64,000 nucleotides of DNA from Desulfobacteraceae bacterium (GTDB taxonomy: Bacteria; Desulfobacterota; Desulfobacteria; Desulfobacterales; Desulfosalsimonadaceae), in NCBI GenBank assembly GCA_011389515.1, contig JAABUA010000002.1:28839-92838 (forward strand). The letters run 5' to 3'. Position 1 is the first letter of the stretch. Each line of letters begins with the position of its first letter. The notes beneath the pieces are model-generated. The model was given only the letters and a program-made list of their open reading frames with translations. It was not told where the DNA came from and did not search any database. A program made the position numbers and the translations under genes. This document shows positions 27,808 through 46,778 of this stretch, piece by piece.

Positions 27808-29980
27808 TGCTTTTCCTCTCCGTGGCCGGCTTCAGCCGAATGATAAATGTGGTGCCATGTCTGTCCGATGTTATATCCGTATTCGATTCGCATTCGATTG
27901 TTCCTCCGTATCGGCTGATAATACCGTAGCTGACGAAAAGGCCAAGTCCGGTGCCCTCCCCCTCCGGCTTGGTGGTATAAAAAGGATCGAAAATGCGGTT
28001 GATATCTTTTCCGTCAATGCCCGTGCCGGTATCTGATAGAGCGATGACCACCCTTTGGTTCGACTCATCCATGCGTCCGGATATAACCAGCATTCCGCCG
28101 TCGGGCATGGCGGATATGGCATTGTTGATGATGTTCAGAAAAACCTGCTGAAACTGCCTGAAATCTCCGATAACCGCCGGAAGGGGATCGGGCAGGTGCA
28201 TGTCCAGTTCAATATCATTCATATCAAGGGTATGTTTGACGATTTTCACCACTTCCCGGATACATTTTTTGATATCGGCGGTTTCAGACGTTTCTTCCCC
28301 GTGGCGGGCAAAGCTGAGCAGGTTTTCCACGATCTGCTTGCAGTGAAGTCCCTGACGCTCAATGGTTTTCAGGTCTTCGTAGTCCTGGCCTTCCGGGTCG
28401 GTGCTGCGGATCAGGAGATCTGAAAATCCGAGTATCACCCCAAGCGGATTGTTGATTTCGTGTGCCACGCCTGCCGCCAGGGTTCCCAGGGAGGCAAGTT
28501 TTTCAGCATTAATCAGCCGGCTTTCCAGGTTTTTCTGCTCCGTAATATCCCTTGCGATGCACAAAACAGCGCTGACATCCCCTTTTTTGTCCTTTAGTGG
28601 AATGAAATTGGCGCTGATCCATGTGCGTCCGACCGTTTTTGAGATTTCAACAATATCGCTTACACTTTTTTTCTCCAAAAACACCCGTCTTGCGCGTTCG
28701 AATATTTTTTCCGCAGTCTGCTCCGGAAACAGTGATGAAAGCGGCATATCTATGAAAATGTCCGGTTCTTTCCCGAAAAAACCGGCGGTAAACGGGTTGA
28801 GAGATTGAAAATGGCCTTTTCTGCTTATGGTGAAAATAAAATCTTCCGCACTCTCCACAAGCGATCGGTACTTTTCTTCGGATCGCCTCAGGGCATGCGT
28901 CCGGTCGTTCACCTCGATTTCGAGAGAACGGGACCAGCGTTTTTCAAGAAACAACACGGCACAAGCTGCTGAAACGATGGCAATGAGCAGAAGCACCTGC
29001 AGCAAAAGCTGGCGATGATTGGCATTTTTGACCAACCCCTCGATTTCTGATGTCGGTGCGACCACCGCAATGGACCATGTTCGGGGAGAATGCCCCTGCA
29101 GGCGGATGGGCGTGTAGGCGATCAGCTTCTTCAGCTTGCCGGTTACGCCCCTGTGCCATCCCGATTCATAAGACCCGGTGCCCTCCAGCCCCCGGAGCAT
29201 TTTTTCCTGCTGGATGAAGTTGATGGTATAAAAGGAGAGTCCCGGGTCTTCCTCCCTTCTGACATTGAAGGCGTCCCTGCCAATGAATTCGGTCTTCGGG
29301 TGAAACAGAAAGCGACCGTCTTCGCTTATTATCCAGGCATATCCGGTTTTGCCGGATTGGATCCCCTTTGCGAACGGGCTTAAAAACCATGACACATTGA
29401 TGTCAAAAATAATGAGTCCTTTCTGCGGACCCGGCAGAAGGGCTGCCATGAAAAGGGTAAGGCGGGACGAATCGTTAACAGGACTGGAAAACCATACCGT
29501 ATCCGAAGACAGTTCTTCTGGATCGGGCAAAAACGAAAACTCCTCCTTCGAAGATGTCCAGTAATCGTTATATATGTAGTGGTAGGCTTTTTGATTTTTT
29601 GCATCAGCATCAATGATCAGTATTTTCCGCACCCCGCTCTCAACCACCCGGGCAAAATTTTTCTGCATGACCGGCTGCATCGCGTCAGGGTCGAATATGT
29701 ACGGGGTGCTTCGGTCTGATTGCGGTCCATCAGGTATGATTTCCCGGCTGATAAGCTTCAGTTCTTTTTCAAGAAACCCCAATTCTCTTTCAACGAGCAA
29801 GGCGACATTCCGTGCAATGACCAGCTGCTCCTCATTAAATTGCCGGCTGACGATGTTTCGAATTTCTGCGGTATGCCACAGGCCGAGCGCAATCGATGCC
29901 AGGATGAACAGGGACGCAACGGATACGGTGATAAAAATCGCGCTGCGTTCCATCTTTGTTCGGCGAAAAGGGCTCTGCAT
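27782..29980 (-). CDS. Sensor histidine kinase (TM, Cache-like periplasmic domain, TM, PAS, HisKA, HATPase)
   Basis: H-box [11 protein letters not shown]; INNAISAM, DTGTGI, GTGLGLF. A periplasmic region of about 300 aa has a Cache-like segment (GYAWIISEDGRFLFHP). Overlaps the NtrC-type gene by 26 nt. Confidence 0.9.
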   Translation of the reverse strand: MQSPFRRTKMERSAIFITVSVASLFILASIALGLWHTAEIRNIVSRQFNEEQLVIARNVALLVERELGFLEKELKLISREIIPDGPQSDRSTPYIFDPDAMQPVMQKNFARVVESGVRKILIIDADAKNQKAYHYIYNDYWTSSKEEFSFLPDPEELSSDTVWFSSPVNDSSRLTLFMAALLPGPQKGLIIFDINVSWFLSPFAKGIQSGKTGYAWIISEDGRFLFHPKTEFIGRDAFNVRREEDPGLSFYTINFIQQEKMLRGLEGTGSYESGWHRGVTGKLKKLIAYTPIRLQGHSPRTWSIAVVAPTSEIEGLVKNANHRQLLLQVLLLIAIVSAACAVLFLEKRWSRSLEIEVNDRTHALRRSEEKYRSLVESAEDFIFTISRKGHFQSLNPFTAGFFGKEPDIFIDMPLSSLFPEQTAEKIFERARRVFLEKKSVSDIVEISKTVGRTWISANFIPLKDKKGDVSAVLCIARDITEQKNLESRLINAEKLASLGTLAAGVAHEINNPLGVILGFSDLLIRSTDPEGQDYEDLKTIERQGLHCKQIVENLLSFARHGEETSETADIKKCIREVVKIVKHTLDMNDIELDMHLPDPLPAVIGDFRQFQQVFLNIINNAISAMPDGGMLVISGRMDESNQRVVIALSDTGTGIDGKDINRIFDPFYTTKPEGEGTGLGLFVSYGIISRYGGTIECESNTDITSDRHGTTFIIRLKPATERKSNVENSDHR

Positions 29981-30306: not shown

Positions 30307-30837
30307 ATGATGAAAATTCCAGGTCGAAAAATCATCAAGCACTTTTTAAATGAAAGGAAACCGGGCATGGATGCGGAAAAAGAGATGAAATTGATGCTCG
30401 TCGATGATGAAGAGCGCTTTTTATATGCAATGGAGAAATTGCTGACCAAAAAGGGCTATGACATCCAGACAGCATCCAGCGGGGAACAATGTCTCGATAT
30501 TCTATCAAAAAATCGCATCCATGTGGTCATACTCGATGTCAAAATGCCGGGGTTGGATGGATTGGAGACACTCAGAAGGATAAAACAGCAGTATCCGCTG
30601 GTCGAGGTAATTCTGTTGACCGGTCACGGCACGGTGGAATCTGCTGTGGATGGTCTGAAATGCGGTGCCTCTGATTTTTTAATGAAACCGATCAGCGCTT
30701 CTGATCTGCTGGACCGGGTAAAAGATGCTTTTGCCCGCAGTCGCGCGGTGGAAGCCAAGATTGATGAGGCACGCTCCCGCAGATTCATGCAGCAGTCTCC
30801 CCGTGACATCTTGAATGATGCGGATGCAAAGGAATAA
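30307..30837 (+). CDS. Single-domain response regulator (REC plus a charged helical tail), module 1
   Basis: GGGAGG RBS 8 nt before the ATG. LMLVDDEERF, VVILDVKMPGLDG, VILLTGHG and FLMKP motifs. An alternative start at 30367 is possible. Confidence 0.85.
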   Translation: MMKIPGRKIIKHFLNERKPGMDAEKEMKLMLVDDEERFLYAMEKLLTKKGYDIQTASSGEQCLDILSKNRIHVVILDVKMPGLDGLETLRRIKQQYPLVEVILLTGHGTVESAVDGLKCGASDFLMKPISASDLLDRVKDAFARSRAVEAKIDEARSRRFMQQSPRDILNDADAKE

Positions 30838-30843
30838 GGCTTG

Positions 30844-32601
30844 ATGGAGCCACGCAAAAGTGCGGATAGGGAAAACATGAACAATACCGATGCCCGGATG
30901 CGTAAAACTGTTCTTTTCAGTATGATCCTCGTCCCGGTGATTCCGTTTGCGCTGGTGATTTTGGTTGGGTATTTTTACTCGGCGTTTACCATTGAAGCAA
31001 GAACGGTCGAGTCTCTGCAGCGGATTGTGAATGACCACAGGCAGATGATCGATACGTTTCTCCGGGAGCGCCGAACGAACCTGGAATTCGTCATTAACAC
31101 CAATTCTTTCGAATCGCTCAGCCGACCGCACAATCTGGCCTTTGTGTACGATAACCTTCGGGGAATATCCAACGCTTTCGTGGATTTGGGCGTCTTTAAC
31201 GAAGAGGGTCTACATGTCGCATATCATGGTCCGCACCAGTTGAGTGGTAAAATATACAAGGACGAACCCTGGTTCATGGAGGTTATTCAAAACGGCGTGC
31301 ATATAAGCGACGTGTTTCTTGGCTTCAGGGGATATCCGCACTTCATTATTGCGGTTGCCAGAAAGGAAAACGGGAAGATATGGGTTCTTCGGGCGACCAT
31401 CGATACCTATATATTCAACGATATGGTCGGACGCATTCGCATCGGCAAAAGCGGTGAAGCATATATCATCAACAAAGACGGCATTTTTCAGACGGCGCCC
31501 TTTGCCGGTGAATTTCTGCTTCAGCAAGATCCGAACCGGGCGCTGTATCTGAGGCGTCACGAAGGCATTAAAACGTTTATTGGCAATCAGAATTTTATCG
31601 GGATCTCCCTGCCATACATGCCAGGGGATATTTACCTGTATGCCACAACCTGGCTGGAAGAAAAACCATGGTTGATGGTGGTGCGCCAGGAAAAACAAGA
31701 CGCCTTTCGAAACCTCCGTTTTGCAATGTATTTAATCGCGGTCATCGCGATTGCGGGTCTGGCAGCGATTATCGGTCTTGCCTTCCAGCAGACCGGCCGG
31801 GTGGTGCGCCGGATCAAGCGGATGGATGCGGAGAAAAAAGGCCTTGAAAATCAGTTGATCCGGGCGACGCGCCTTGCCGAACTGGGGCAGATGGCCGCCG
31901 GTTTCGCCCATGAAATCAACAACCCCCTTCAGGTTATCCGCAGTGAACAGGCACTTATGGAATTTATCATAACAGAGATAAAGGAAATGCAAGAAAATGC
32001 AGATGAATCATCCTTTGCAGAGCTGGAAGATTCGATTCACCAGATGACCATCCAGATAAACCGGTGCGCCCATATTACACAGGCGATATTGAATTTTGGC
32101 CGGTATACCGAGCCGGACATGGAAAATATTCGACTCAGTGATTTTGTTGGCGAGATAATCGTCATGATATCCCGCAAAGCCGCCGTCCATGGCATCTCTG
32201 TAAACCAGCGCATCGCGGATGACACACCGTTGATATACGGAGACAAGGGGCAGTTGCAGCAGGTTCTGCTCAACCTGCTGAATAATGCCATCGATGCCGT
32301 TATTGAAAAACACGGATCAAAGGAGGGTGAAGTCCTGATCTATGCCGGAAGGACCGAAGACGGTCATGTCGAGGTTTCGGTGCAGGATAACGGCGCAGGT
32401 ATCAGCGCGGAAAATTTTGACAAAATCTTCACTCCCTTTTTCACCACCAAGCCGCCGGGCAAGGGCACAGGGCTTGGGTTGTCGGTCTGCTACGGAATCG
32501 TGGAAAACCTTGGCGGCAAAATGTCTGTGAGCAGCCATGAAGATGTCGGCACGACGTTCACCATATGGTTTCCAGCGGCGGAAAACAAGAGCGCCCAATA
32601 A
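30844..32601 (+). CDS. Sensor histidine kinase with a Cache/PDC-like periplasmic domain, module 1
   Basis: Two TM segments flank about 240 aa (..[34 protein letters not shown]..). H-box [11 protein letters not shown]; [21 protein letters not shown]. There is no HAMP or PAS between TM2 and HisKA. Confidence 0.9.
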
Positions 32602-32652
32602 GTCAATACAGGAATTGCATGGACCTGGAAACATCTTTCTAAGGAGGAAATC

Positions 32653-32787
32653 ATGAGCCGGAGTTTTCGAAAAATTTTTAAAACCGGTGTGATCCGCATA
32701 CCGGCCAGAATCGAACGAACCTTTTTCTTCTGGGCAACCATAATCGCCGTCACGACATATCTGGCAAACCGTTTTTTTGCCTATTAA
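32653..32787 (+). CDS. Small ORF (44 aa) absent from the supplied track; predicted single-pass membrane peptide
   Basis: AAGGAGG RBS 5 nt (AAATC) upstream of the ATG. MSRSFRKIFKTGVIRIPARIERTFFFWATIIAVTTYLANRFFAY: a basic N-terminus followed by one hydrophobic helix. It lies between the kinase and the permease and is below the 60-aa cutoff of the ORF track. Confidence 0.5.
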   Translation: MSRSFRKIFKTGVIRIPARIERTFFFWATIIAVTTYLANRFFAY

Positions 32788-32827
32788 AAGGGGTTTTCTG
32801 AAACAAAACAGATGAAAGGAGGAGATA

Positions 32828-34684
32828 ATGTCGCAAACCGAAGAAGCAAGGACGAAACCGTCAGGCTATGACAAGTATATTAACTGGAAGCTTTTCGCAA
32901 TCCCACTTGTCCTTCTGATTCTGATCCTTTCGATGCCCGTTCCCCAAAGCATGCTGGATGTCGGAGTGGAATACTCCATGGGGGAGAAATATGTTAAAGA
33001 ATATTTTTCACAGGAGCTTTTCGAACAGCCCCTGCCTGAGTTGGCGCAGTGGCAGGTCCAGATGGTTCGAATGATGAATCAGCATGTGCAGATGTCTTCT
33101 TTCAGCCAGAAAGCCTTTCTGGCCAGAAACGAATCCTGGCTGAACAGAAACGATATTCCTACGAACCCGGCACACCTGGAAAAAGTTCGTGAGCGGGCAG
33201 CGCAGATCCCCGAGGACCGCTTTGTAAGCCTGCTGATGGAGGGGCATAAACTGCAGACCGAAACATTGACGTATGAAAACCTGGGCGAAGCGGAGAAAAA
33301 GGCGGCCAGAAAAGCGGCATTTCATGTAAAAGTGGGGGTAGGCATCGTCGTCTTCGTGGTCCTGTGTTTTGTCACCGAAGCCATGCCGCTGCCCATGGTT
33401 GCATTTTGTATCGGTATTATCGCCATGTTGACCGGGGTTGTTACAAGGGCAAATGTGTCCATGCTCTACTGGTCGGATGCCACATGGTTTATTATGGGGA
33501 GCCTCATGTTTGCCACGGCATTTGTCAAAACCGGCGTGGACAGGCAGATTGCCATGGCCATGTTCGGCAGAATGAAAAATGCGGATGTTAAATGGATCTC
33601 GTTGGTCATTGTGCTGGTCATTGCCCCGTTGACCATGTTTATGTCCGATCATGCCCTGGCAGCCATGTTTCTTCCCATCGGGATTCTATTGTATACGACG
33701 ACCGTCAGTGCGACCGGAAACGAAGACCCCGAGCTTGCCAAGATGCTGATGATAACGATTGCCATGGCCGCCAATCTGGGAGGGTCACTGGCACCGTCCG
33801 GCGCGGCCAGAAATATCATCATGATGGGGTATACCGAGGAAATGTTCAACCTGCAGATTACATTCATGCAATGGGTCATGTATTGCGCGCCTTTTCTTCT
33901 TTTTCTGATGCCCATCACCTGGATTGTCATCAATTGGCGCTTTAAACCTGTGGAACGGGATATGGCGAGGGCTTTGGGCGTTGTAAAGCGTGAAGTCGGG
34001 AAAAGCGGCGGCTGGACTCGTCCGCAGATTATTTCATTGATCATTTTTATCGTGATGTTTCTGGGCTGGGTTACGGAAAGCAACATTTTAAGAGATCTGA
34101 TCGGAGTCCGCCTTGGCATCGGCACCGTGGCCGTAATGGGCGGTGTCGCATATATTCTGGCGGGCGTGGTAAACTGGCGGGATTACCAGACCAAGGTGGA
34201 CTGGGGGGTTGTCTGGCTATATGCCGGGGCGATTATTTTCGGCAGGGTGCTGGTGGATACAGGCGGGGCATACTGGATTGCGCGGACGCTTCTTTTGATC
34301 ACCGAGCCCCTTGGATTAGGGCAAGGCCTTGGCCTGCTGTTGTCCGGCAATGTCATCACCGGTCTTATGACGCAGCTCATGGCAGACGGCCCGGCCTGTG
34401 CAGCCGTGGGGCCGGTTACGCTCTCCATGGCGGGTATCGCCCACCCGGGCACCGCGATGATCCCGTTTGTGGCAATGGGTACTTCCATCGCCTCTTCTTT
34501 TGCATACATGCTGGTAATCGGTACGCCGCCCAATGCCATTGTTTATGCCAGCGGCTATCTCCATGCAAGGGATTACCTTCGTGTCGGCGTAATCCTGTGG
34601 TTTACCAACATGGCGGGCCTGCTGCTTCTGGCGTCAACGTACTGGCGGTGGATGGGATTCGGCGATCTTCCGATGCCTTTTTAA
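32828..34684 (+). CDS. DASS/SLC13-type (ion-transporter superfamily) anion permease with an extra N-terminal TM and a 125-aa loop, module 1
   Basis: 618 aa, polytopic. Hairpin-type motifs AMAANLGGSLAPSGAARN and VIGTPPNAIVYASGY are typical of DASS/CitMHS/ArsB-like permeases. GGAGGAG RBS. Confidence 0.8.
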   Translation: MSQTEEARTKPSGYDKYINWKLFAIPLVLLILILSMPVPQSMLDVGVEYSMGEKYVKEYFSQELFEQPLPELAQWQVQMVRMMNQHVQMSSFSQKAFLARNESWLNRNDIPTNPAHLEKVRERAAQIPEDRFVSLLMEGHKLQTETLTYENLGEAEKKAARKAAFHVKVGVGIVVFVVLCFVTEAMPLPMVAFCIGIIAMLTGVVTRANVSMLYWSDATWFIMGSLMFATAFVKTGVDRQIAMAMFGRMKNADVKWISLVIVLVIAPLTMFMSDHALAAMFLPIGILLYTTTVSATGNEDPELAKMLMITIAMAANLGGSLAPSGAARNIIMMGYTEEMFNLQITFMQWVMYCAPFLLFLMPITWIVINWRFKPVERDMARALGVVKREVGKSGGWTRPQIISLIIFIVMFLGWVTESNILRDLIGVRLGIGTVAVMGGVAYILAGVVNWRDYQTKVDWGVVWLYAGAIIFGRVLVDTGGAYWIARTLLLITEPLGLGQGLGLLLSGNVITGLMTQLMADGPACAAVGPVTLSMAGIAHPGTAMIPFVAMGTSIASSFAYMLVIGTPPNAIVYASGYLHARDYLRVGVILWFTNMAGLLLLASTYWRWMGFGDLPMPF

Positions 34685-34699
34685 TACCGGGAGGTAACA

Positions 34700-35230
34700 A
34701 TGCAGTCAATGGATCGAACAGCATTCCGGTCGAAAGGGACCGGTTTTTACAGGGACGTGGTGAAGATTCTCCTTTATCCGGGACAATTTTATGCGGCAAT
34801 GCCGGATTTGAAACAAAAGAGGGAGGCTGTCGCCTTTTTATGCATCTGTGTGGTCATATACAGCGCTGCGGCGACAATTTTCGCCTATGAAAACCATTTT
34901 TTTTATTTTTTTATGTTTCTGGCAAATGGGTTGCTTATCCCCATTGTCACGTTTGCGGCTTTGTTTTTGGTTCTTTTCATGACAGGTGCAGGAAGAACCG
35001 GGCATGCAGCAGCACTATGCATTGTCGCATATGCCGGCGTAAGCCTGTTGTTTGCCTGGATACCGGGGATGGCTCCTTTTGCTGAAATTTATAAATACTA
35101 CCTGGTCGGTCTGGGCCTTGTAAAGGCCGGGAAAATGAGTCTGGCAAGGGCGATTGCGACACTTTTGGGAACAATCGCATTGTTATGGCTGGTGCTGCAT
35201 TTTGCACAAATCCTGACCGGGAACGCCTGA
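34700..35230 (+). CDS. Yip1-like five-TM membrane protein
   Basis: 176 aa with about 5 hydrophobic helices and a Yip1-like N-terminal segment (FYRDVVKILLYPGQFY). GGGAGG RBS, 15 nt after the permease stop. Confidence 0.5.
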   Translation: MQSMDRTAFRSKGTGFYRDVVKILLYPGQFYAAMPDLKQKREAVAFLCICVVIYSAAATIFAYENHFFYFFMFLANGLLIPIVTFAALFLVLFMTGAGRTGHAAALCIVAYAGVSLLFAWIPGMAPFAEIYKYYLVGLGLVKAGKMSLARAIATLLGTIALLWLVLHFAQILTGNA

Positions 35231-35291
35231 AAGGAATAATTCTTTCCGATCGGCCCATTGCGGCATATATGATTATACAGGAGGAAAAGCA

Positions 35292-36218
35292 ATGAGTGAT
35301 AAAATAAAGGTGTTGATGGTTGATGATGAAGAGCGGTTTCGGGAAACCACCGAAAAGATCCTCAGGAAAAAGGGGTTTGATACGATACTGGCGGCAACCG
35401 GGGAGCAAGCCCTGGATAAGTTGGCGGAAGCCCCGGACGTGGTGGTGTTGGATGTCAAGATGCCGGGCATGGACGGGCACCAGGTGCTGCGGGAAATAAA
35501 AGAAAGGAATCCGGATATGCCGGTCATCATGCTCACCGGCCACGGCAAGAAACCTTCGGCAAGGATCGCACTGGAGCAGGGGGCATTTGATTATCTTACC
35601 AAGCCGTGCGATATTAACGTGTTATCTGCAAAAATCCATGAAGCATGCCATTATTCCGGTGTCGATCACCCTGAAGAGGAAAAGCGGGTGCGTGACATTA
35701 TGGTTCCCATAATGGATTACACCACCATAAAAGAGGATGAATCCATCGGCGAGGCTTTCCGGAAACTCCGCGAATCATTTTCACTGGCCGCATGCACCAA
35801 CCGCCTGATGGAAACGGGACATCGCTCCATCCTGGTATTTGACCGGCAGGGCAACATGAAGGGAATCCTGTCCATCCGAAATGTCCTGGAAGGGATAATG
35901 CCGGCCTACCTTTCCGCCCCGAGGCCTTCCATGGCGGACGGTATACAGTATTCCCCCATGTTCTGGGGCGGCGCATTCAACAGAGAGATACGGGAGCTGG
36001 CGGATAAAAAGGTCAGCCGGATCATGTCGCCTGCCCCCCCGGTAATCCGTGACGACGCAAACCTGATGGAAGCGGCGTACATGATGGTAACTCAAAATTA
36101 CCGGAGAATGGCGGTGATCCAAAAGGAAACCGTGGTGGGCGTCATTCGGGAACAGGACCTGTTCTTCGAGATGGAAAAGGTGCTGCGATCAAGCCGAAGG
36201 GAAAAAGATGTGCCATAG
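35292..36218 (+). CDS. Response regulator with a CBS-pair output domain (REC-CBS)
   Basis: VLMVDDEERF, VVVLDVKMPGMDG, VIMLTGHG and YLTKP motifs, then two CBS-like repeats (VRDIMVPIMDYTTI...; VSRIMSPAPPVIRDDANLMEAAYMM...MAV). AGGAGG RBS. Confidence 0.85.
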   Translation: MSDKIKVLMVDDEERFRETTEKILRKKGFDTILAATGEQALDKLAEAPDVVVLDVKMPGMDGHQVLREIKERNPDMPVIMLTGHGKKPSARIALEQGAFDYLTKPCDINVLSAKIHEACHYSGVDHPEEEKRVRDIMVPIMDYTTIKEDESIGEAFRKLRESFSLAACTNRLMETGHRSILVFDRQGNMKGILSIRNVLEGIMPAYLSAPRPSMADGIQYSPMFWGGAFNREIRELADKKVSRIMSPAPPVIRDDANLMEAAYMMVTQNYRRMAVIQKETVVGVIREQDLFFEMEKVLRSSRREKDVP

Positions 36219-36376: not shown

Positions 36377-38155
36377 ATGTCGAGACCTGAAGCGAAGCAT
36401 TCTGGTTCGAACCAGAGGGTCGGAAACAATCCTGCGACAGCGGATTCTACATCCGCACCCCACCAGGAGTCCGTCCGCTTTTATCACCGCCGCCTGAAAC
36501 AAGGCATCCTCCTCTGTCTTCTGATAACCTACCTGATCCCTATTGTTGCTATAACAGCATATTTTAATTATAAATTTAATTCAAATATGCGGGAAAGCAG
36601 CAAGCTGCAGCTCACGGCGGTGGCCGAAAGCCAGAGAAACACGATCGATCTTTTCATGCAAAAGCGGATCGTAAACGTGTTCAATCTCTTTCACATGAAA
36701 GGATTTTCCCTGGAGCCATCGCGGGACGATATGCATGCATACCTGGAAAACCTCATACGGTCCGATGATGCATTCGTGGATGTGGGACTGATCAATCCGG
36801 AAGGGATACAGGCGGGATATGCCGGGCCGTATCCCCACCTGCGCGGCAAGGATTACAGTGAGGAAAAATGGTATACCGACCTGGTCCGTCAGCCGGAAAG
36901 CTATATTGTTACGGACCTTTACCTGGGGCTGCGCAAACATCCTCATTTTACCATCGGGGTCAAGCAGTTGATGGATGGCGATTATTACGTGATCCGAACC
37001 AGTGTCTACCCGGACAAGCTGGAAGATTTTCTGCGTGCGATCAATCACAGCAAGCAGGCACGAGGATTTCTGGTGAACCGGGAAGGGATTTATCAGGTTG
37101 TCGTCCCTGAATTCGGAACATTGCTGGAGCCTGCCCCGTATGCCCCGGAAGCGGGAAGCCAAGCCGATGTGGGAGTAATAAAAGTAAACGGCAACTCCAT
37201 GCTGGCGGCCCACACCTGGCTGAAGGAAGTCCCGTGGTGCCTGGTGATGCTGCAGCCGGAAGCCGTCGCTTTCGAGGAGATGTATGTCATCAGAAATACC
37301 ATGATCATCGGTGCTGCCATTTTGGTGCTGGTGATCATGGTATTTATATGGATTGTCGTCAACCGGCTGTTCAGTCGGGCGCAGGCCGTGGAAGAGGAAA
37401 AGGTGGAGCTCAAAAGCCAGTTGTACCATGCGCATAAACTGGTTTCCGTCGGCCAGCTCGCGGGCGGTGTGGCCCATGAGATCAATAACCCCCTGGCCAT
37501 TATTGAATCGGAAGCTGGTATCATACGGGATATGCTCGACCCGGAATTGGGACTGGAGGCTTCTCCGGATGCGATCGTAAAAGAGCTCGATGAAATTGAC
37601 AAGGCGGTCAACCGGGCAAAGGGGATTACCCAGAAAATATTGAGCTTTGTTCGCAAAACCGATCCGAAACTGGTGGAATCCGATATCAACCAATTGCTTG
37701 AGGAAGTCGTATCCGGCGTCAAGGAGCAGGAGTTCAAGGTCTCGGACATCCGCCTTGTAAAGGAGTTTGATCCCGCTCTGCCAAAACTGCAGCTGGATCC
37801 CGATCTCATGCGGCAGGTTTTTCTCAACCTGCTCAACAATGCCAGTGACGCGGTCGACAAGGGGGATACCATTACCTTGAAAACGGAAACCGAAAAAGGT
37901 TTCGTAAAAATCATCGTGGCCGATACGGGAAAAGGGCTGAGTGCAGACCAGCTTGAAAAAATTTTCATGCCGTTTTTTACCACCAAGAAAGTGGGAAAAG
38001 GGACCGGGCTTGGCCTCCCCATCAGCCTGAATATCGTCGAGGGTTTTGGCGGTCGTATCACGGTTGAAAGCACACCGGGCACGGGAACGGCTTTTACGAT
38101 CTTTTTGCCGGCAGCAGGCAGAGGCGGGACGAGTCGCGGGGAGGGCGAAAACTGA
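36377..38155 (+). CDS. Sensor histidine kinase with a Cache/PDC-like periplasmic domain, module 2
   Basis: Paralogue of 30844-32601 (..VTDLYLGLRKHPHFTIGV..ARGFLVNREGIYQ..). H-box [11 protein letters not shown]; LLNNASDA, DTGKGL, GTGLGLP. Confidence 0.9.
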   Translation: MSRPEAKHSGSNQRVGNNPATADSTSAPHQESVRFYHRRLKQGILLCLLITYLIPIVAITAYFNYKFNSNMRESSKLQLTAVAESQRNTIDLFMQKRIVNVFNLFHMKGFSLEPSRDDMHAYLENLIRSDDAFVDVGLINPEGIQAGYAGPYPHLRGKDYSEEKWYTDLVRQPESYIVTDLYLGLRKHPHFTIGVKQLMDGDYYVIRTSVYPDKLEDFLRAINHSKQARGFLVNREGIYQVVVPEFGTLLEPAPYAPEAGSQADVGVIKVNGNSMLAAHTWLKEVPWCLVMLQPEAVAFEEMYVIRNTMIIGAAILVLVIMVFIWIVVNRLFSRAQAVEEEKVELKSQLYHAHKLVSVGQLAGGVAHEINNPLAIIESEAGIIRDMLDPELGLEASPDAIVKELDEIDKAVNRAKGITQKILSFVRKTDPKLVESDINQLLEEVVSGVKEQEFKVSDIRLVKEFDPALPKLQLDPDLMRQVFLNLLNNASDAVDKGDTITLKTETEKGFVKIIVADTGKGLSADQLEKIFMPFFTTKKVGKGTGLGLPISLNIVEGFGGRITVESTPGTGTAFTIFLPAAGRGGTSRGEGEN

Positions 38156-38302
38156 CTTGCGGCGATCTGCAGGCAGATGCCGGCGCATGCATACCATCCG
38201 CGCAAAAGTGGTCAATGGGAAAATATATAGAACATATATAAAAAGGATATGGGTTTATGAACAGATACGATGTAAAACAAATTTATCAAAAGGGAGGGTA
38301 AC

Positions 38303-40348
38303 GTGACTGAAAACGGAAAACCTGCAATGGATGAAAAACCGAAAATCCTGTTGGTGGATGACGAGGATCAGTTTCGGAGCGCCATGTCCAAGAGACTTTC
38401 GGTCCGTGGATACGACGTTATGGACATCGATAACGGCGAAGATGCCATAAAGATCGTGCGCCATGAAAATCCGGAAGTGGTTATACTGGACCAGAAAATG
38501 CCGGATATGGACGGCATCCAGACGCTTCGGGAACTGAAAAAAATCCGGCCGGAAGTACAGGTTATTATGCTCACCGGACACGGCAGCATTGAATCGGCGC
38601 GCTTTACAGGGAAACATGACATTTTTGCCTATATGCAAAAACCCGCCCCGATCGAGGACATGATTGAAAAGATCGAGGGGGCCCGCCAGGAATACCGGTA
38701 TGCCATGGCCCGCCAGGAAATCCCGCACATTGAAGAGCCAAGCCTTAAAAACTGGCTTATCGGTGTGCAGGGGAGGCGCCCCGGGATCATGATCATCGGC
38801 CTGCTTTTATTTGCCATGATGTATTTCATACCGCCAACGGACCGCTTGCTGGAGATGCTTTCCGCACAAAAGGGGGGGGCGCAGGACGAACTGATCATGG
38901 GATACGCGGAGTACCGGAGCCTGGGAGAAGGGCAGACGCCGTCAGAGCATTACGCCAGAACGGCCCGTTTAAATTATGAAGAGGGCCAGGTAGAATATGT
39001 GGTGGCCCAAAAAGCCAAGATTATGCTTGGCGTGCTTATGGTGGCGGCCCTTTTCTGGGCGACCGGTGCCGTGCCGATCGGGATTGCGGCCCTTCTGGTG
39101 GGCGTTTTGATGTACTGGTTCGCGGTCCTGCCCCCCAACGGGGTGGCAAAGGCATATGCAACGGATGCCGTGTTTTTCATATTCGGCGTTCTTGCCATGT
39201 CCACGGCCATATCCAAAACAGGCCTTGACCGGCGCATCGGGATTCTGCTTCTGAAACCCAGCACAAACATGCTGCGCCTGTGCCTGATTTTTGCCCCCAT
39301 GGTGGCCGTAACCGCCTCGTTTCTCTCAGAGCATGCCATTATTGCCTTTATTGCGCCGGTGTTCATGATGGTATACATGGGCGCGGTCAAGGTGGGCAAT
39401 GTGGGCAAGGACAAGGCGTTGGTGCTCATGATGATGCTGACGCTCAACTATGCCTGCAACGTGGGCGGGCCCGGATCGCCCGCAGCCGGCGGCAGAAACG
39501 TCATCATGATCGGTTTTTTAAGGGACTACGGCATTGAGCTGACCTTCGGCCAGTGGGTCATGTACGGCCTGCCCTTTGTTCCGGTAATGGCGATTATTAT
39601 TGGCGCTTACTGGTATTTGTGGGGCCGCAACAAGATGGTGGTCAAAAATCTCAATGTTTCGGATGCGGTCAAGCGCGAATCCGATAAAATCGGTAAAATG
39701 ACCACCGATGAATACAAAACCGCTGTGGTGCTGGTACTGCTGATTCTCGCATGGTCTGCGCTGTCCGGTATTTTCGGCATGGGCGGGCCGGTCATTCTCG
39801 CACTGGTAGCCCTAAACATCCTGGGGATTCTGCGGTGGAAAGATGTCGCCAGCATTCACTGGGAAGTCGTATTCCTGTATGCCGCAGCAAGCGCCATGGG
39901 GTACGGTCTGGCCATCACCGGTGCGGCAATGTGGATCGCAGACATGTTCGTGGACGCTCTGCCGGCGGTGCTGACCAGCTCCGGAGCCGGCCTGAGCATT
40001 GCCGTATCGGCTTTTGTTGGTGTACTGACCAACTTCATGAGCGACGGTGCGGCTGTTGCATCCATCGGACCTGTTGTGATTCCCATGGCCACGATGGCCG
40101 GCGCCTCTCCTGTCATGGTGGGGCTTGCAACCTCCTTTGCATCGTCATTTGCCCATGCCATGGTTATCGGAACGCCGAACAACGCCATTATTTTCGCCTT
40201 GGCCAAAGATTATGAAACCGGCGAACAGTTGATCACCGTATCGGATTTTTTCAAGCATGGCATCATCATTCTGTTGCTGTCCCTGCTCGTGATGTGGTTT
40301 TTTGTCATACTGGGATACTGGCGGTTCCTGCCGTTCGCCATGGGATAA
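38303..40348 (+). CDS. REC receiver domain fused to a DASS/SLC13-type anion permease, module 2
   Basis: One uninterrupted 681-codon ORF. REC signature: D19/D20 (LLVDDED), D63 (VVILDQKMPDMDG), T91 (IMLTGHG), K113 (YMQKP). TM at about aa 160-177. The permease body has NVGGPGSPAAGGRN and VIGTPNNAIIFAL hairpin motifs. GTG start after GGGAGGG; alternative ATG at 38327. Confidence 0.85.
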   Translation: MTENGKPAMDEKPKILLVDDEDQFRSAMSKRLSVRGYDVMDIDNGEDAIKIVRHENPEVVILDQKMPDMDGIQTLRELKKIRPEVQVIMLTGHGSIESARFTGKHDIFAYMQKPAPIEDMIEKIEGARQEYRYAMARQEIPHIEEPSLKNWLIGVQGRRPGIMIIGLLLFAMMYFIPPTDRLLEMLSAQKGGAQDELIMGYAEYRSLGEGQTPSEHYARTARLNYEEGQVEYVVAQKAKIMLGVLMVAALFWATGAVPIGIAALLVGVLMYWFAVLPPNGVAKAYATDAVFFIFGVLAMSTAISKTGLDRRIGILLLKPSTNMLRLCLIFAPMVAVTASFLSEHAIIAFIAPVFMMVYMGAVKVGNVGKDKALVLMMMLTLNYACNVGGPGSPAAGGRNVIMIGFLRDYGIELTFGQWVMYGLPFVPVMAIIIGAYWYLWGRNKMVVKNLNVSDAVKRESDKIGKMTTDEYKTAVVLVLLILAWSALSGIFGMGGPVILALVALNILGILRWKDVASIHWEVVFLYAAASAMGYGLAITGAAMWIADMFVDALPAVLTSSGAGLSIAVSAFVGVLTNFMSDGAAVASIGPVVIPMATMAGASPVMVGLATSFASSFAHAMVIGTPNNAIIFALAKDYETGEQLITVSDFFKHGIIILLLSLLVMWFFVILGYWRFLPFAMG

Positions 40349-41595: not shown

Positions 41596-42027
41596 TTATC
41601 TGCCCCGCGTGGTGATTTCTTTTATTTGCGCTTCAATGATCTTTTCTTCCTGTTTTCTCTTTTTCGCAGCGGCTTCTGTTGTTTTGCTCACAAGCAAATC
41701 GATATCGCAGGGCTTCATCAGGTAATCAAAAGCCCCTTTTTTCATACCCTCGATGGCGGATTCGACCGTTGCATGGCCGGTGAGCATAATGACTTCCTTT
41801 AGCGGATGATGCGTTTTAATTTCTTTGAGGGTCTCGATGCCGTCCATGCCGGGCATTTTCACATCCAGCACCACCACCTCGATGTTGGGATGGGCTTTCA
41901 GTTTTTCCAGGGCTTCTCTGCCATTAAAAGCCGGAATGATATCCAGGTCCCGCCTGGTCAGCCTTTTGGTCATGGTCTCCACAAAAGGGACTTCATCATC
42001 GACCAGCAATACGGTTGCTAAAGCCAT
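41596..42027 (-). CDS. Single-domain response regulator (REC plus charged helical tail), module 3
   Basis: VLLVDDEVPF, VVVLDVKMPGMDG, VIMLTGHA and YLMKP motifs. AAGGAG RBS. Confidence 0.88.
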   Translation of the reverse strand: MALATVLLVDDEVPFVETMTKRLTRRDLDIIPAFNGREALEKLKAHPNIEVVVLDVKMPGMDGIETLKEIKTHHPLKEVIMLTGHATVESAIEGMKKGAFDYLMKPCDIDLLVSKTTEAAAKKRKQEEKIIEAQIKEITTRGR

Positions 42028-42038
42028 CTGATTCTCCT

Positions 42039-43820
42039 TTATTCTTCTTCTTGAAAACTATTGTTTACCGGCAGCACGATGCTGAATTTTGTGCCTACGT
42101 CCACTGCACTTTCAACATCGATCCTGCCGCCCATTTTCTGGACAATGCCGTAGCATATGGAAAGCCCCAGCCCGGTACCCCTGCCGACCTGTTTGGTAGT
42201 GAAAAACGGGTCGAAAATACGGTTCAGGTTGCTTTCGGGAATCCCCGGCCCGTTATCCTGTATGGTGATCGTAATCCATTCATCTTCCGCTTTTGTGCTG
42301 ATATCGAGCCGCCCGCCTTTTTTTTCCATGGCATCAATAGCATTGTTGATGATATTCATCAGCACCTGCTGCATTTCCGTAGCCGAGGCCTGTATGTCCG
42401 GGAGGTCGGGCTCGAGCTGCGTATGGACGTCCACACTGGCGTACCTGGATTTTTGTGAGGAGAGGGAGACGACCTCTTCAATAAGGTCATTCAGTTGAAT
42501 GGCATGCACTCTCGAATCGGTTTTTCGCGCAAAACTGAGCAGTTTATGGGTGATCTCCTTGCAGCGTATCCCCTGGGTGCCGATCTGTGCCAGGGCACGC
42601 TGGAATTCCTGAAGGTTATCTTTTTTATCAATGCCTTCCTCCAGCAGGTCTTGAATCCAGCCGGCCTCTTCCACCATGATGGCCACCGGGTTATTGATTT
42701 CATGGGCGATTCCAGCCGCAAGCTCACCGATGGTTGCCAGCTTTCCGGTTTCAACGATCTGTTTGTTCATCATTTCCTTTTCGGAATCAACCCTTGCAAT
42801 GCGCTTTTCCATCTGCCTGGAAAGAAGAAACGCAACCATGATGATGCCAAGTGTGCCTATAAAGAGGATAAGGGCCGCGATTTTTTGCGTACGGTTCAGC
42901 TTAGCATAGGCATCGTCCGCCTCTTGCTGGAAAATCAGGAGCCACTCGTTTCCCTTGAGAAAGGCGGCGACAATAATGATATTCCGGTCGAGGGAACCGG
43001 TTTTTTCAACGGTGATAACCGGGTCGACAACTTCTCCGCTTCCCGAATCCCATCCTTTGATAACCGGGAAAACAAGCCAGTCTATCACTTCTGTGGACGC
43101 AATTCCCCTGTTGTATCCCCTTTCAAACAAATTGAGATACTGCTCCTTGGACAGCTTGGCATCTCTGGGGGGGCGCGTCTGGAAGTCTCCCTGCCGGTTG
43201 AGGATGAATGCCGACCCGGTTTCCCCCACCGTAAGGTTTTCAACCAGGATATTAAAGGCATGAAAATCAATGGTGGCACGCAGTATCCAGTGTGCACCGT
43301 CATCCGCCGTCATCCTCGTGGATACAATAAAGTGCGGCTGGTCCCGCAGTCCCAGAAATACGTCGCTGATGTAGTGCTTTTTGTTGATCGCCTCCGTGAA
43401 CCATGCCGCATCTCCGTAAAACGCCGCTTCAAGCCGGAACGGACCGGCATAGGCCATTTGCTGCCCCTGTTGGTTGATCAATCCCAGGTCAACAAATACG
43501 GTGCTGTATTCATCCTGCAGGATGTTCAAGCGTTCCTTTAAAAACCGTTCATCCGTGAAGGCCTCCAGTTCAAAACTTCTGGAAAGATGCCGTATATCGC
43601 TCAGCTTTTCCTGGAGAAAAAAATCGATGTTGTGCTTGTGTTTCAGCACCATCTCCTCCAGGTGGGCATTGACCATCTCGTGGGAGAAAGCGTTGAAGCG
43701 GTAAAGAATGATGCCGGTTACAAGGATCAGGGGCGCAAGGGATACAACGATAACAATCATCGCCACCCGTCGGGAGATGTTTTTGTAATAGGCATCGTCA
43801 TGTTTTCTGTCTTGGGTCAT
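42039..43820 (-). CDS. Sensor histidine kinase with a Cache/PDC-like periplasmic domain, module 3
   Basis: Paralogue of the module 1 and 2 kinases (..[32 protein letters not shown]..). H-box [11 protein letters not shown]; [21 protein letters not shown]. Confidence 0.9.
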
Positions 43821-43852
43821 ATTGGTATCCAGATCGTAGATTTTTTATTGTG

Positions 43853-45274
43853 TTACGGCAAAATCTCAATGGTTGGATACAATCCCTTATTGGCCCCTTC
43901 CGGATACGGCTGGATGATATTGTATGAAATGATCTGGCTCTGCTGGGCATGCCCCATTTTTTCCCTGCCGTCGAAATACGCGCCGTTGGCTTCAAGAATG
44001 TGCTCGATTCGGTGCCTGAACGCGTCGGCAAAGTTTTTTCCGCTTCCTTTGAAGTGCATCCGGCCCCTGGTAAATTCGCCGTCTATAGCGGCAATTTCCG
44101 CCAACGGGATGCTGTTTTGATCCACGTCGTCCTGGTTCCGGATAAACCCCCAGACGACGCTTGATGGGGCAATCGTCACGGCTTCGGCAAGGTCAATGAT
44201 CGTATGGGGCATGATAATACTGTTTTCTCCGATTTTCAATTGAAACCCGTCTGCCCCCCGGAGAAACGAATTAAACCCGACAAACACGTTTTCACCCAGA
44301 TGGGCATGGATGATTTTTGCCCCGTGCGCGGTTACGTCGTACCCTGAAAGGTGCGAGTCTATGATAAAACAGTTTTCCTGGGCATTGGCGCCTTTTCCCA
44401 TGTATGAATTCTTAACATATGCTCGCTGGGAAATCAGGACGTTCTCTTTGATGCGAACTTTCGGTTTTACAACGGCATACCGGCTCAGGGATGCGGAATC
44501 CGGAATTACGCCGAAACTTTCAAGATTGAATGCATCGAATATGCGCTGGAAATCTTCCTTGCGGTCTTCCACAAAATCCATGAATATGCCCTTCGGCATT
44601 CCTCCCGGTTCAAACCGGATATAGTTTTGGAGGATTTCCGGGTCGTGACGGTAGTGAAAATCAAACGCACCCGCAGCGGAAATCCATATGGTGCCCGCCG
44701 GCACCTGGTGATGGGCCAGTTCTTTTTTCTGGAGATATACGAACTCACCGATGACGCAGTCGTGCAGGGTGGTGAGGTCGACCGTGCTGAAAGGGCCCAG
44801 AAAGCATCCTTCCACGTCGGAGCCGTGGATATTGGCATAATGCGTTGATACGGTGTTGTAGATGGTGAATTCCTCTGGATGCTCGGGATCGTGGGAATTG
44901 TTGTGGACCAGGGTTTTCACCAGGCAGCTGTTTTTGATGTGGATGGTTTCATCTTCATGAAGTGGGACGGCAAACCCTTCGTAGTGGAAAATGTCCCCTT
45001 TCCGCTTCAGTTCATCTCCCCGTATATCGCTTTTATACAAAATGGAATCGGATACGTGGCATTTGCCGAGGAAGTAGCTCCCGGCCAGATTGGAACGGGA
45101 AAAATAAAAATTCGGCGGGTATTGAGGTGCAATACCGTAAAATGCGTAAAATTTGACCATCTGCTCCCAGGGAACCAGCCCCTCGATATAGGGGGCAGCA
45201 TCGAACAAGGGCTCCCGAAGATTGATATTGACGCGCTGGATGATTCGTTCCAGCAGCTCCTGTAATTGTTCCAT
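43853..45274 (-). CDS. Hypothetical protein with a left-handed beta-helix-like core (473 aa), function unknown
   Basis: AAGGAG RBS. Hexapeptide-like periodicity in ..IKENVLISQRAYVKNSYMGKGANAQENCFIIDSHLSGYDVTAHGAKIIHAHLGENVFVGFNSFL.. No catalytic family recognised. Confidence 0.6.
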   Translation of the reverse strand: MEQLQELLERIIQRVNINLREPLFDAAPYIEGLVPWEQMVKFYAFYGIAPQYPPNFYFSRSNLAGSYFLGKCHVSDSILYKSDIRGDELKRKGDIFHYEGFAVPLHEDETIHIKNSCLVKTLVHNNSHDPEHPEEFTIYNTVSTHYANIHGSDVEGCFLGPFSTVDLTTLHDCVIGEFVYLQKKELAHHQVPAGTIWISAAGAFDFHYRHDPEILQNYIRFEPGGMPKGIFMDFVEDRKEDFQRIFDAFNLESFGVIPDSASLSRYAVVKPKVRIKENVLISQRAYVKNSYMGKGANAQENCFIIDSHLSGYDVTAHGAKIIHAHLGENVFVGFNSFLRGADGFQLKIGENSIIMPHTIIDLAEAVTIAPSSVVWGFIRNQDDVDQNSIPLAEIAAIDGEFTRGRMHFKGSGKNFADAFRHRIEHILEANGAYFDGREKMGHAQQSQIISYNIIQPYPEGANKGLYPTIEILP

Positions 45275-45305
45275 GATTCACTCCTTGGATCATTTATTTA
45301 TTGAT

Positions 45306-46778
45306 TTACCCCAATGTTATTTCCATTCCCATCAGCGGCCATACCAGCAATATGGTAAGCCCAAGGACCGCCAAAAGCAGGATGGATGCGGGAATGCCGG
45401 TGATAAAAAATTCTCCGCTGGTAAACTGTTTGGAATTGTATGCAATGGCATTGGGGGCGGCCCCGACCAGCAGCAGAAAGGGCATGCCGGCCACAACCAG
45501 GGCTGCAAACAGAATGATCTCGCCGCTGACCCCGAGGTAGGGAGCCACGACCAGGGCCACCGGAAGGGATATGGCAATGGAGGCCACGTTCATGATGAAG
45601 TTGGTCATGATCATGATGAAAAATGCGATACCCATGACAAATATGAACCAGTGGCTGTCCTTGAAAAACCCCAGCCAGTTGATGGCCAGCCATTCGGCTG
45701 CGCCGGTCTGCCACAGGCAGAAACCGATGCTCATGGCCCCGGCGAACAGCAAAATGATATTCCATGGAATATCTTCCAGGTCATGAATATCCAGGATGTG
45801 AAAAATAAAAAAAAGCACGGTGCCCACGAGAATAATGGCCGATTTGTTGAACGGCGCCAGCGCCGGGATGAACGATTGGAGAGACAGAAACAGGATGGTG
45901 CCCCCGACGATCAGGGCGGCAATGATTTCGTTGCGCTTCAGGGGGCCCATATCCGCATTGAGCTGCCGGGCCTTTTCCCGCAATCCCGGGATGCGGTCCT
46001 TCTCCGGTTTGAAAAAGAGCATGAAAAAACCCCACAGCAGAAAGACCATCAACCATCCTATGGGGGCCATGTAGTAGCTTAGTTCGAAAAAGGAAATGTC
46101 ATTTCCGGTGATTTCCTTGTAAAACCCCAGTGCGACGATGCCCCGTGCAGCGCCAAGAAGGGTGATAATGGAGCCGGCGCCCGCCACAAAGGCCATTCCC
46201 ATGAAAAGGCCCTTGCCGAATCGCGTGGGGGTCGTATCGGTCGTGTACAATGCGTAAATGGCAAGCAAAAGCGGGTACATGGTGGCTGCCACCGCGGTAT
46301 GCGCCATGATGTGCGTCAAGAGTGCGGTGACCACGAAGCATCCCAGGTAGATGCGGCTGGTCTTCTCGCCAACGATCATCAACATCTTGTATGCCAGCCG
46401 CTTGGTGAGCCCCACCTTTGTAAACACCATGCCGATGGTGAGCGACCCGAAGATGAACAGAACCGACGGATCCATGAAATCCCTGAATGCATCGCCTGCA
46501 GGGCGGATGAAAAAAAGTGCCTGCACAACGCCGATAAGAATGCCGGTCACACCGATGGGAAGTACTTCAAACACCCAGAATGTGCCGGCAAGCAGGAACA
46601 GGGCCAGTGCCCCTTTGGCCTGATGGCTCAGTTCGAATTGTTTCCCCATCGGATCGATGGCATCCGGCCAGGGCGGGGAATAATATACCAGGAGAAACAA
46701 ACCAATGCCGATTGCCATGAACAGCAGGCGTTTCCAGTCAAAATCGCTCTTTTCAAGTTGAGAAGTGCTCTCTGCCAT
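45306..46778 (-). CDS. DASS/SLC13-type (ion-transporter superfamily) anion permease, module 3
   Basis: 490 aa, polytopic; VGAAPNAIAYNS hairpin motif and overall similarity to the other two permeases. AAGGAG RBS. Confidence 0.8.
   Translation of the reverse strand: MAESTSQLEKSDFDWKRLLFMAIGIGLFLLVYYSPPWPDAIDPMGKQFELSHQAKGALALFLLAGTFWVFEVLPIGVTGILIGVVQALFFIRPAGDAFRDFMDPSVLFIFGSLTIGMVFTKVGLTKRLAYKMLMIVGEKTSRIYLGCFVVTALLTHIMAHTAVAATMYPLLLAIYALYTTDTTPTRFGKGLFMGMAFVAGAGSIITLLGAARGIVALGFYKEITGNDISFFELSYYMAPIGWLMVFLLWGFFMLFFKPEKDRIPGLREKARQLNADMGPLKRNEIIAALIVGGTILFLSLQSFIPALAPFNKSAIILVGTVLFFIFHILDIHDLEDIPWNIILLFAGAMSIGFCLWQTGAAEWLAINWLGFFKDSHWFIFVMGIAFFIMIMTNFIMNVASIAISLPVALVVAPYLGVSGEIILFAALVVAGMPFLLLVGAAPNAIAYNSKQFTSGEFFITGIPASILLLAVLGLTILLVWPLMGMEITLG

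Follow-up and report, generated by a model that had tools for sequence, protein, structure and literature searches.

A gene within a 64,000-nucleotide stretch of DNA from a Desulfobacteraceae bacterium (contig JAABUA010000002.1, positions 28,839 to 92,838; hereafter the window, whose own numbering is used throughout) encodes REC-DASS, a protein in which a receiver (REC) domain is fused to the N-terminus of a secondary carrier with the DASS fold. The REC-DASS architecture is conserved across phyla. We propose that REC-DASS is a membrane-embedded response regulator that has the carrier itself as its output and is phosphorylated by the histidine kinase encoded upstream, HK2, a reading that we consider slightly more likely than not. 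It is based on a conserved acceptor pocket, a constant kinase neighbor, the lack of a DNA-binding partner, intact carrier motifs and an N-terminal slot that appears to be exchangeable. Phosphotransfer to REC-DASS, its effect on transport, the structural route between the domains and the substrate are all things that we infer. The known outputs of response regulators are DNA binding, enzymes and protein–protein adaptors, and we know of no characterized case in which a secondary transporter has this role. What is new in REC-DASS is an uncharacterized class of response-regulator output and an uncharacterized mode of DASS regulation, built from parts that are themselves ordinary.

The REC-DASS gene (38303-40348, forward strand) runs from a GTG start to its stop through 681 codons without interruption, in the open reading frame (ORF) list and in the translation alike, as the first-pass annotation of this DNA had described. 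The GGGAGGG ahead of the GTG is a strong ribosome-binding site. Promoter and terminator scans around the operon gave matches at chance level only and were set aside.

A search of a 5.8-billion-protein collection identified at least 120 clusters (at 90% identity) that carry both REC and DASS Pfam domains, with 59-97% identity and lengths of 625-702 residues (aa). The fusion is present in the isolates Desulfobacula toluolica Tol2 (a complete genome), Desulfatitalea alkaliphila, Desulfonatronovibrio magnus, D. hydrogenovorans and Desulfonatronum parangueonense, in Desulfobacula phenolica, and in an Abyssubacteria metagenome-assembled genome (MAG). Full-length copies were also recovered in a scan of GTDB species genomes, from which loci L025-L055 were left out as receiver-only matches containing no REC-DASS; these copies are in MAGs labeled Desulfobacteraceae, Desulfatiglandales, Syntrophobacteraceae, Desulfotignum, Desulfosarcina and Desulfosudaceae, and also in MAGs labeled Planctomycetota and Poribacteria. 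The closest relative in that scan belongs to a Desulfobacteraceae MAG and is 90% identical. As to the taxonomic spread that the first-pass annotation had asked about, the architecture is widespread, with several phyla among its labels. That a frameshift, assembly error or missed stop has joined a receiver gene to a permease gene is almost inconceivable. Separate receiver genes do adjoin unfused DASS genes elsewhere in the window, but nothing else supports an artifact, and the same continuous architecture recurs in the independent clusters, in the complete Tol2 genome and in isolates, with conserved linker residues. The frameshift or stop in the linker that had been considered earlier as a sign of two separate genes is absent; the fusion occurs in isolates and in many MAGs, and residues of the linker are invariant.

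The receiver is complete and, judged by its residues, apparently phosphorylatable. Pfam profile PF00072 (Response_reg) matches aa 15-125 with an E-value of 2.6e-25 and 89 bits versus a cutoff of 30.2, over profile positions 1-111 of 111; a match at about aa 12-125 had been anticipated, and the one obtained lies far over the Pfam cutoff. The signature residues D19/D20, D63 (codon 38489-38491), T91 and K113 are all where the first-pass annotation had placed them in the translation, and they are 100% conserved in an alignment of 124 full-length relatives with 53-97% identity, while 95% of these sequences retain Y110, the aromatic switch residue. The receiver is as conserved as the carrier in this alignment, with a mean column identity of 0.75 for the former versus 0.71 for the latter. 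We built an AlphaFold2 monomer model from 43 homologs (mean pLDDT 81), in which strands 14-18, 38-42, 59-63, 86-91 and 109-112 of the receiver alternate with five helices in a (β/α)5 fold; pLDDT is 83-90 except around α4, with a dip in confidence at aa 97-99. On the α4–β5–α5 face, A99, R100 and G103 are invariant. Foldseek superimposes the receiver on Spo0F with a TM-score to target of 0.91 and also matches PorX; by profile, the nearest solved receivers are NtrC1, DctD and Spo0F. The invariance of every catalytic residue rules out a pseudo-receiver in the main clade, but this description does hold for one divergent relative (P0131) and partly for another (P0133).

In the model, the receiver is followed by a low-confidence segment (aa 139-148, pLDDT <50), a short helix (aa 148-153), a transmembrane (TM) helix (aa 160-175), a helical region (aa 180-229) and the permease. 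The α5 helix is modeled as a single long helix spanning aa 117-137. Mean conservation of the linker is 0.62, and E130, E139, P141, G154, R159, P160 and G161 are invariant among the 124 relatives. The insertion at aa 181-229 is modeled as short helices with pLDDT 82-94, and its sequence conservation is low (0.38). The layout described earlier, with a linker (aa 126-159), one helix (aa ~160-180), a loop (aa ~181-229) and a permease body, is roughly right, but the helix is not an extra one. Judging from the alignments, it is the canonical TM1 of the DASS fold, because the match to VcINDY begins at TM2 and the unfused paralog encoded at 32828-34684 (DASS618) has the same TM1–loop–TM2 layout, with a loop of ~120 aa. 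In the VcINDY alignment, the first matched positions are about aa 249 of the family profile and residue 44 of the 462 in VcINDY, so each protein has space for one helix ahead of the match.

The N-terminus of a DASS carrier is on the cytoplasmic side, as in VcINDY, and the receiver would therefore be cytoplasmic. The R158-R159 pair just ahead of TM1 and the net negative charge of the aa 181-229 loop, both read from the sequence, agree with a receiver on the inside. The cytoplasmic placement in the first-pass annotation is thus borne out by the charges around TM1 and by the TM1 assignment. An extra helix that would place the receiver outside the cell was ruled out by the TM1 equivalence, the paralog layout and the charge distribution.

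The carrier portion is matched by PF00939 (Na_sulph_symp) at aa 234-676, with an E-value of 4e-33 and 115.6 bits versus a cutoff of 27 (profile positions 26-469 of 472), where a permease model at about aa 240-680 had been expected. PF03600 (CitMHS) also matches the permease (E 1e-27), and the family profile matches VcINDY (E 1e-27). Foldseek returns human NaS1, VcINDY, NaCT and NaDC3 at probability 1.0 and TM-scores to target of 0.7-0.84, together with Pho90 and plant DiT carriers; no PDB chain in this search joins a receiver with a DASS fold. Against NCBIfam model TIGR00785, REC-DASS scores 150.4 bits versus a curated cutoff of 198.6, and the two unfused paralogs in the window score 207 and 198.5.

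The Ser-Asn-Thr (SNT) signature, which belongs to the Na+ and substrate site of VcINDY, is absent at both hairpin tips of REC-DASS; SEH and SDG occupy these positions and are conserved throughout the clade. The corresponding positions are SDH/ADG in the 618-aa paralog and AHT/MNV in the 489-aa paralog. Because the SNT signature is lacking, we file the permease as a DASS-fold carrier of a divergent clade and not as a VcINDY/SLC13-type Na+/dicarboxylate or Na+/sulfate symporter. The presence of two acidic residues at the predicted binding site may mean that REC-DASS uses another coupling ion or another substrate. The motifs previously taken for hairpins, NVGGPGSPAAGGRN and IGTPNNAI, are not the hairpin tips and instead align to GGIATLVGTGPNAI and VATPPNAI of VcINDY, the aligned VcINDY stretches being GGIATLVG(S/T)(P/G)PNAI and VATPPNAI. 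Their reported sharing with the two DASS paralogs is loose and not exact, with NLGGSLAPSGAARN/IGTPPNAI in one and GAGSIITLLGAARG/VGAAPNAI in the other. The carrier-site motifs are invariant in the family and identical to those of the unfused close relatives P0129, P0132 and P0139. Decay of the carrier to a pure sensor is not supported, since its site motifs are the same as those of these unfused relatives.

An exhaustive HMMER search of 1.84 billion representatives, confirmed with Pfam, identified more distant REC-DASS fusions: P0131 (39% identity), P0133 (34%), P0150 (29%), P0130, P0143 and P0163. The kinase gene at the P0130 locus overlaps the fusion gene by 4 nt, and P0133 and P0150 are each followed by a CBS protein of ~190 aa. 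P0163 belongs to a different DASS clade and is found on a contig with T9SS Por_Secre_tail genes (Bacteroidota-like; locus L059 5438-10090). Its neighbors there are a histidine kinase, a free receiver and a CBS protein, so the four components seen in the window recur in a different gene order. Among relatives with 43-57% identity, P0129 and P0132 have no N-terminal domain, and P0134 (locus L061 131-2209; 43% identity in the carrier part) has a universal stress protein (Usp) domain in place of the receiver. It seems that different regulatory domains can take the N-terminal place on the cytoplasmic side. In a rough neighbor-joining tree, drawn without support values, receiver-bearing members occupy at least three separate positions, a pattern suggesting that the N-terminal domain was gained or lost more than once.

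To compare gene neighborhoods, the window proteins were mapped onto 24 related loci. HK2 ends 148 nt upstream of REC-DASS, and in ~17 of the 18 related loci with enough upstream sequence the gene immediately preceding REC-DASS encodes a dCache kinase. HK2 is the presumed partner kinase on the basis of this genetic linkage. The gene order around REC-DASS is the same in D. toluolica; the kinase preceding REC-DASS in that species (locus L058 7911-9956) is 681 aa long and has an N-terminal receiver ahead of its dCache domain that is absent in HK2. On the other side, a free receiver (REC_b) is directly downstream of REC-DASS in most loci. The Desulfotignum loci and L003 lack REC_b but retain REC-DASS and the CBS protein. 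The CBS protein is no more than two genes downstream in ~18 of 22 loci and is also found beside the divergent P0133, P0150 and P0163. We refer to HK2, REC-DASS, REC_b and the CBS protein as Module 2.

The broader locus, from 26.4 to 51.0 kb of the window, encodes four dCache histidine kinases, six receiver-containing proteins and three DASS carriers, along with a REC-CBS fusion, two CBS-pair proteins, a tandem Usp, a Yip1-family protein and a hexapeptide-repeat transferase (Table 1). Three neighboring kinases had been counted earlier; three dCache kinases do adjoin, and a fourth is also present at 27782-29980. By Pfam, the only DNA-binding domain among the receivers of the locus (26.4-51 kb) is in an NtrC-type protein at 26407-27807, and none is next to the DASS genes.

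The following sequence of events would account for these features. The periplasmic dCache domain of HK2 would sense a small molecule, for which sulfate has been put forward by others in clusters of this type, and HK2 would autophosphorylate and then transfer the phosphoryl group to Asp63 of the receiver. Phosphorylation would alter the α4–β5–α5 face and probably also receiver pairing across the carrier dimer. The long α5 helix and the conserved linker could carry this change either to TM1 and the scaffold or to the mobile transport domain at its cytoplasmic surface. The carrier would then toggle between active and inactive states, or between kinetic modes, within seconds and without transcription. 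In such a scheme REC_b would most likely be a competing phosphoryl acceptor, and the CBS-pair protein would most likely be an energy- or nucleotide-sensing brake.

The same arrangement could be read in the opposite direction. Information may flow from kinase to carrier or from carrier to signaling, and gating of transport by phosphorylation is a presumption. If the carrier acted as a flux sensor or phosphate sink, its conformational cycle would tune the uptake or loss of phosphoryl groups from HK2 by its own receiver, REC-DASS would compete with REC_b, and phosphorylated REC_b together with the CBS protein would be the true output. In that case REC-DASS would be classed as a transceptor, resembling DctA/DcuB in their action on DcuS or systems in which a single kinase serves two CheY proteins. 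A kinase with two acceptors is the textbook arrangement of a phosphate sink, and a second complete receiver is indeed right downstream in most loci; an internal flux signal would complement what the periplasmic dCache domain of HK2 already senses. However, REC_b also lacks an output domain, so the final target could again be a carrier, and the loci that lack REC_b retain both REC-DASS and the CBS protein. Divergent fusions that have no kinase nearby, or that have Glu at the acceptor position, nevertheless keep the receiver, which is easier to understand if the receiver acts on the carrier. On balance, we consider the flux-sensor explanation unlikely.

We regard as quite improbable a further explanation, in which the receiver serves assembly, localization or turnover, with phosphorylation-dependent dimerization or partner binding controlling oligomerization, kinase clustering or degradation. 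Single-domain and adaptor receivers that act through protein–protein contacts are well known, and the adaptor-type receivers CpdR and RssB provide a precedent. In an NCBIfam scan, the REC-DASS receiver is partly similar to CpdR- and RssB-type models, although far below their cutoffs, and the replacement of REC by Usp and the constant CBS partner suggest a protein-interaction hub. On the other hand, the α5–TM1 linker contains invariant residues and does not vary in length within the main clade, constraints that a passive tether would not require, and no conserved protease or adaptor genes are found in the neighborhoods of the compared loci.

Several observations weigh against the proposal that the carrier is the output of a phosphorylated receiver. 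In P0131 (locus L056 6001-7980) the DD pair is replaced by NC and the acceptor Asp by Glu, and in P0133 the DD pair is replaced by ES; the degeneracy of these divergent receivers implies that phosphorylation is not universally required. P0131, which adjoins another DASS gene and a Usp gene and has no kinase nearby, may be a phosphorylation-independent and possibly locked version. The second receiver in the operon fits equally well with REC-DASS being a phosphate sink or co-sensor, and the receiver–carrier interface in the monomer model is not reliable. With SEH/SDG tips in place of SNT, the substrate and coupling ion of VcINDY or NaS1 are not transferable to REC-DASS. Sulfate is the published proposal for this carrier group, based on expression at low and high sulfate and on the abundance of paralogs in proteomes (PMC5840216, PMC11887813), but for the fused protein it is no more than a candidate substrate, and some lineages that carry the fusion are not known to reduce sulfate. 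Published proteome lists give Dvar_38430 and TOL2_C19470 as the abundant DASS carriers of this cluster type and contain no identifiable REC-DASS, and we found no experimental data on the REC-DASS family in the literature searched. The D. toluolica ortholog could not be reliably matched by gene order to TOL2_19410/19470, nor to D. autotrophicum HRM2_38230/38270/38300, and we make no claim about its expression.

Both halves of REC-DASS can be compared with solved structures. Solved DASS carriers are presumably homodimeric elevator carriers. The REC-DASS permease shares its fold, and the succession of its helices and re-entrant hairpins, with VcINDY, human NaS1/SLC13A1, NaCT and NaDC3, but differs from them in its N-terminal receiver, its 50-aa insertion between TM1 and TM2, and its SEH/SDG tips in place of SNT. 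In NtrC1 and DctD, a receiver dimer and an α5 coiled coil keep the output off until phosphorylation. Receivers of this type are the best solved matches to the REC-DASS receiver (PDB entries 1ny5, 1zy2, 1l5y and 1qkk; E 1e-17 to 1e-22), and they have in common with it the LTGHG and KP(C/A) signatures and a long α5 that continues into the output linker. Whereas the output of NtrC1 and DctD is a soluble AAA+ σ54 activator, α5 of REC-DASS leads into a TM helix of a carrier.

A cytosolic N-terminal regulatory domain controls carrier activity in yeast Pho90. This protein has an SPX domain on the N-terminus of a DASS-fold phosphate carrier (PDB entries 8r33-8r35), and its carrier part matches REC-DASS by fold; however, Pho90 is eukaryotic and its SPX domain reads inositol pyrophosphates, outside the His-Asp phosphorelay to which a receiver belongs. 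Two-component domains are also joined to carriers in the ammonium-transporter kinase Ks-Amt5. The SLC5-STAC histidine kinases CbrA, CrbS and RpuS likewise join a two-component domain to a secondary-carrier fold (PMC9100948). In all of these the carrier is the input to a kinase, whereas in REC-DASS it is joined to a receiver and stands at the output end.

No functional or structural study of a receiver-fused DASS carrier was found in the literature searched, although an earlier mention in a response-regulator census is possible. The novelty claimed in the first-pass annotation holds to the extent that no characterized example was found there, but the architecture is common and already annotated, and its type of locus was published in 2025. 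UniProt entry K0NN26 (CCK80087, D. toluolica) is named 'Response regulator modulated sodium/sulfate symporter', and a cluster of DASS, two-component and CBS genes has been described in Desulfosarcina variabilis and other Desulfobacteraceae (Sci Adv 2025; PMC11887813). Like the window, the D. variabilis cluster contains several DASS carriers, dCache kinases, receivers, REC-CBS, CBS and Usp proteins and a hexapeptide-repeat transferase, a gene set that is also found in D. toluolica and in locus L001. In the published model the kinases act on expression through DNA-binding WalR-type regulators, with CBS proteins as a second level. The text and figure keys of that paper include no receiver-fused transporter, whereas the window has one, and the receivers beside the DASS genes of the window have no DNA-binding domain.

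Module 1 and Module 3 of the window each combine a free receiver, a dCache kinase and an unfused DASS carrier, an arrangement that recurs in L001, L009, L015, L017, L058, L062 and L065; synteny with Module 3 is seen in L001. By Pfam, the kinase of Module 3 (HK3) is a dCache kinase and the transferase a hexapeptide-repeat protein. The REC-DASS fusion predicts physical receiver–carrier contacts in these adjacent unfused modules. Extending this idea, the locus as a whole may be a largely transcription-independent two-component network in which receivers act directly on secondary carriers, with REC-DASS as its 'Rosetta stone'; we offer this tentatively and consider it somewhat doubtful. The free receivers of the modules at 30307-34684 and 41596-46778 would then bind and gate the unfused DASS carriers in trans, as CheY does with the flagellar switch, and the CBS-pair protein would add an energy-state input. 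If true, such a network would define a new class of response-regulator output and would give sulfate reducers a seconds-scale switch of uptake capacity or affinity, and it could explain why apparent half-saturation constants for sulfate have been reported to shift between low and high values.

Sulfate-reducing bacteria carry out a large part of carbon mineralization in marine sediments. The control of sulfate uptake in these organisms, including the switch between high and low affinity, is poorly understood (PMC5840216, PMC11887813). If phosphorylation of Asp63 gates the carrier, solute flux in bacteria would be coupled directly, and in a quickly reversible way, to a kinase that senses the cell exterior. 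With D63, which can be mutated, and a defined partner kinase, REC-DASS makes post-translational control of anion uptake in sulfate reducers accessible to experiment.

Table 1. Features of the REC-DASS gene and its neighborhood in the window
Feature	Position	Strand	Description and basis
REC-DASS gene	38303..40348	+	681 codons plus stop, one polypeptide; ORF list, translation, Pfam
Shine-Dalgarno-like GGGAGGG	38292..38298	+	4-5 nt before GTG; read directly from sequence
Receiver (REC) domain, aa 15-125	38345..38677	+	PF00072; D19/D20, D63, T91, Y110, K113
Predicted phospho-acceptor Asp63 codon	38489..38491	+	Computed from translation; invariant in alignment A1 and in 124-sequence alignment
α5 end and linker to membrane, aa 126-159	38678..38779	+	Model, alignment
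TM1 of DASS fold, aa ~160-180	38780..38842	+	Cytoplasm to periplasm; hydropathy segment 159-180, model helix 160-175
TM1-TM2 insertion, ~50 aa, aa 181-229	38843..38989	+	Predicted periplasmic; model, alignment, charge
DASS/SLC13-fold permease body, aa 230-676	38990..40330	+	PF00939, PF03600, VcINDY profile, Foldseek
S342-E343-H344	39326..39334	+	Site of first VcINDY SNT hairpin tip; HMM alignment to VcINDY; invariant in A1
S580-D581-G582	40040..40048	+	Site of second VcINDY SNT hairpin tip; HMM alignment; S580 and G582 invariant, D581 at least 90%
HK2, membrane sensor histidine kinase	36377..38155	+	dCache_1, HisKA, HATPase_c; Pfam; presumed cognate kinase
REC_b, free receiver, 181 aa	40404..40949	+	No output domain; PF00072 E 4.8e-24; DD, D, T, K present
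CBS-pair protein, 194 aa	40950..41534	+	PF00571 E 1.2e-13; most constant REC-DASS companion
Module 1	30307..34684	+	Free receiver 30307-30837, dCache kinase HK1 30841-32601, unfused 618-aa DASS 32828-34684; Pfam
Yip1-family membrane protein and REC-CBS fusion	34700..36218	+	Yip1 34700-35230, REC-CBS 35292-36218; Pfam
Module 3	41596..46778	-	Free receiver 41596-42027, HK3 42039-43820, transferase 43853-45274, unfused 489-aa DASS 45306-46778

Some further features of the locus were noted. The pair of genes for the Yip1-family protein and the REC-CBS fusion also follows a DASS gene of the 618-aa type in D. toluolica, L062 and L065. REC-CBS (35292-36218, forward strand) consists of a receiver and two CBS motifs and is another receiver with a non-DNA-binding output. 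The hexapeptide-repeat transferase (43853-45274, reverse strand; 473 aa) is encoded between HK3 and the 489-aa DASS carrier, and transferases of the same name are found near sodium/sulfate symporters in constitutive proteomes (TOL2_C19580 of D. toluolica and Dvar_38460 of Desulfosarcina variabilis). The terminator scan returned an inverted repeat with a 20-bp stem at 37297-37342 (forward strand) within the HK2 coding region, which is probably a chance or coding-related feature. Toward the end of the locus, a receiver-less σ54 activator of 497 aa directly follows a CBS-pair protein of 159 aa with a 4-nt overlap (49062-51031 for the two, reverse strand), and the pair may give the locus a transcriptional arm under CBS control.

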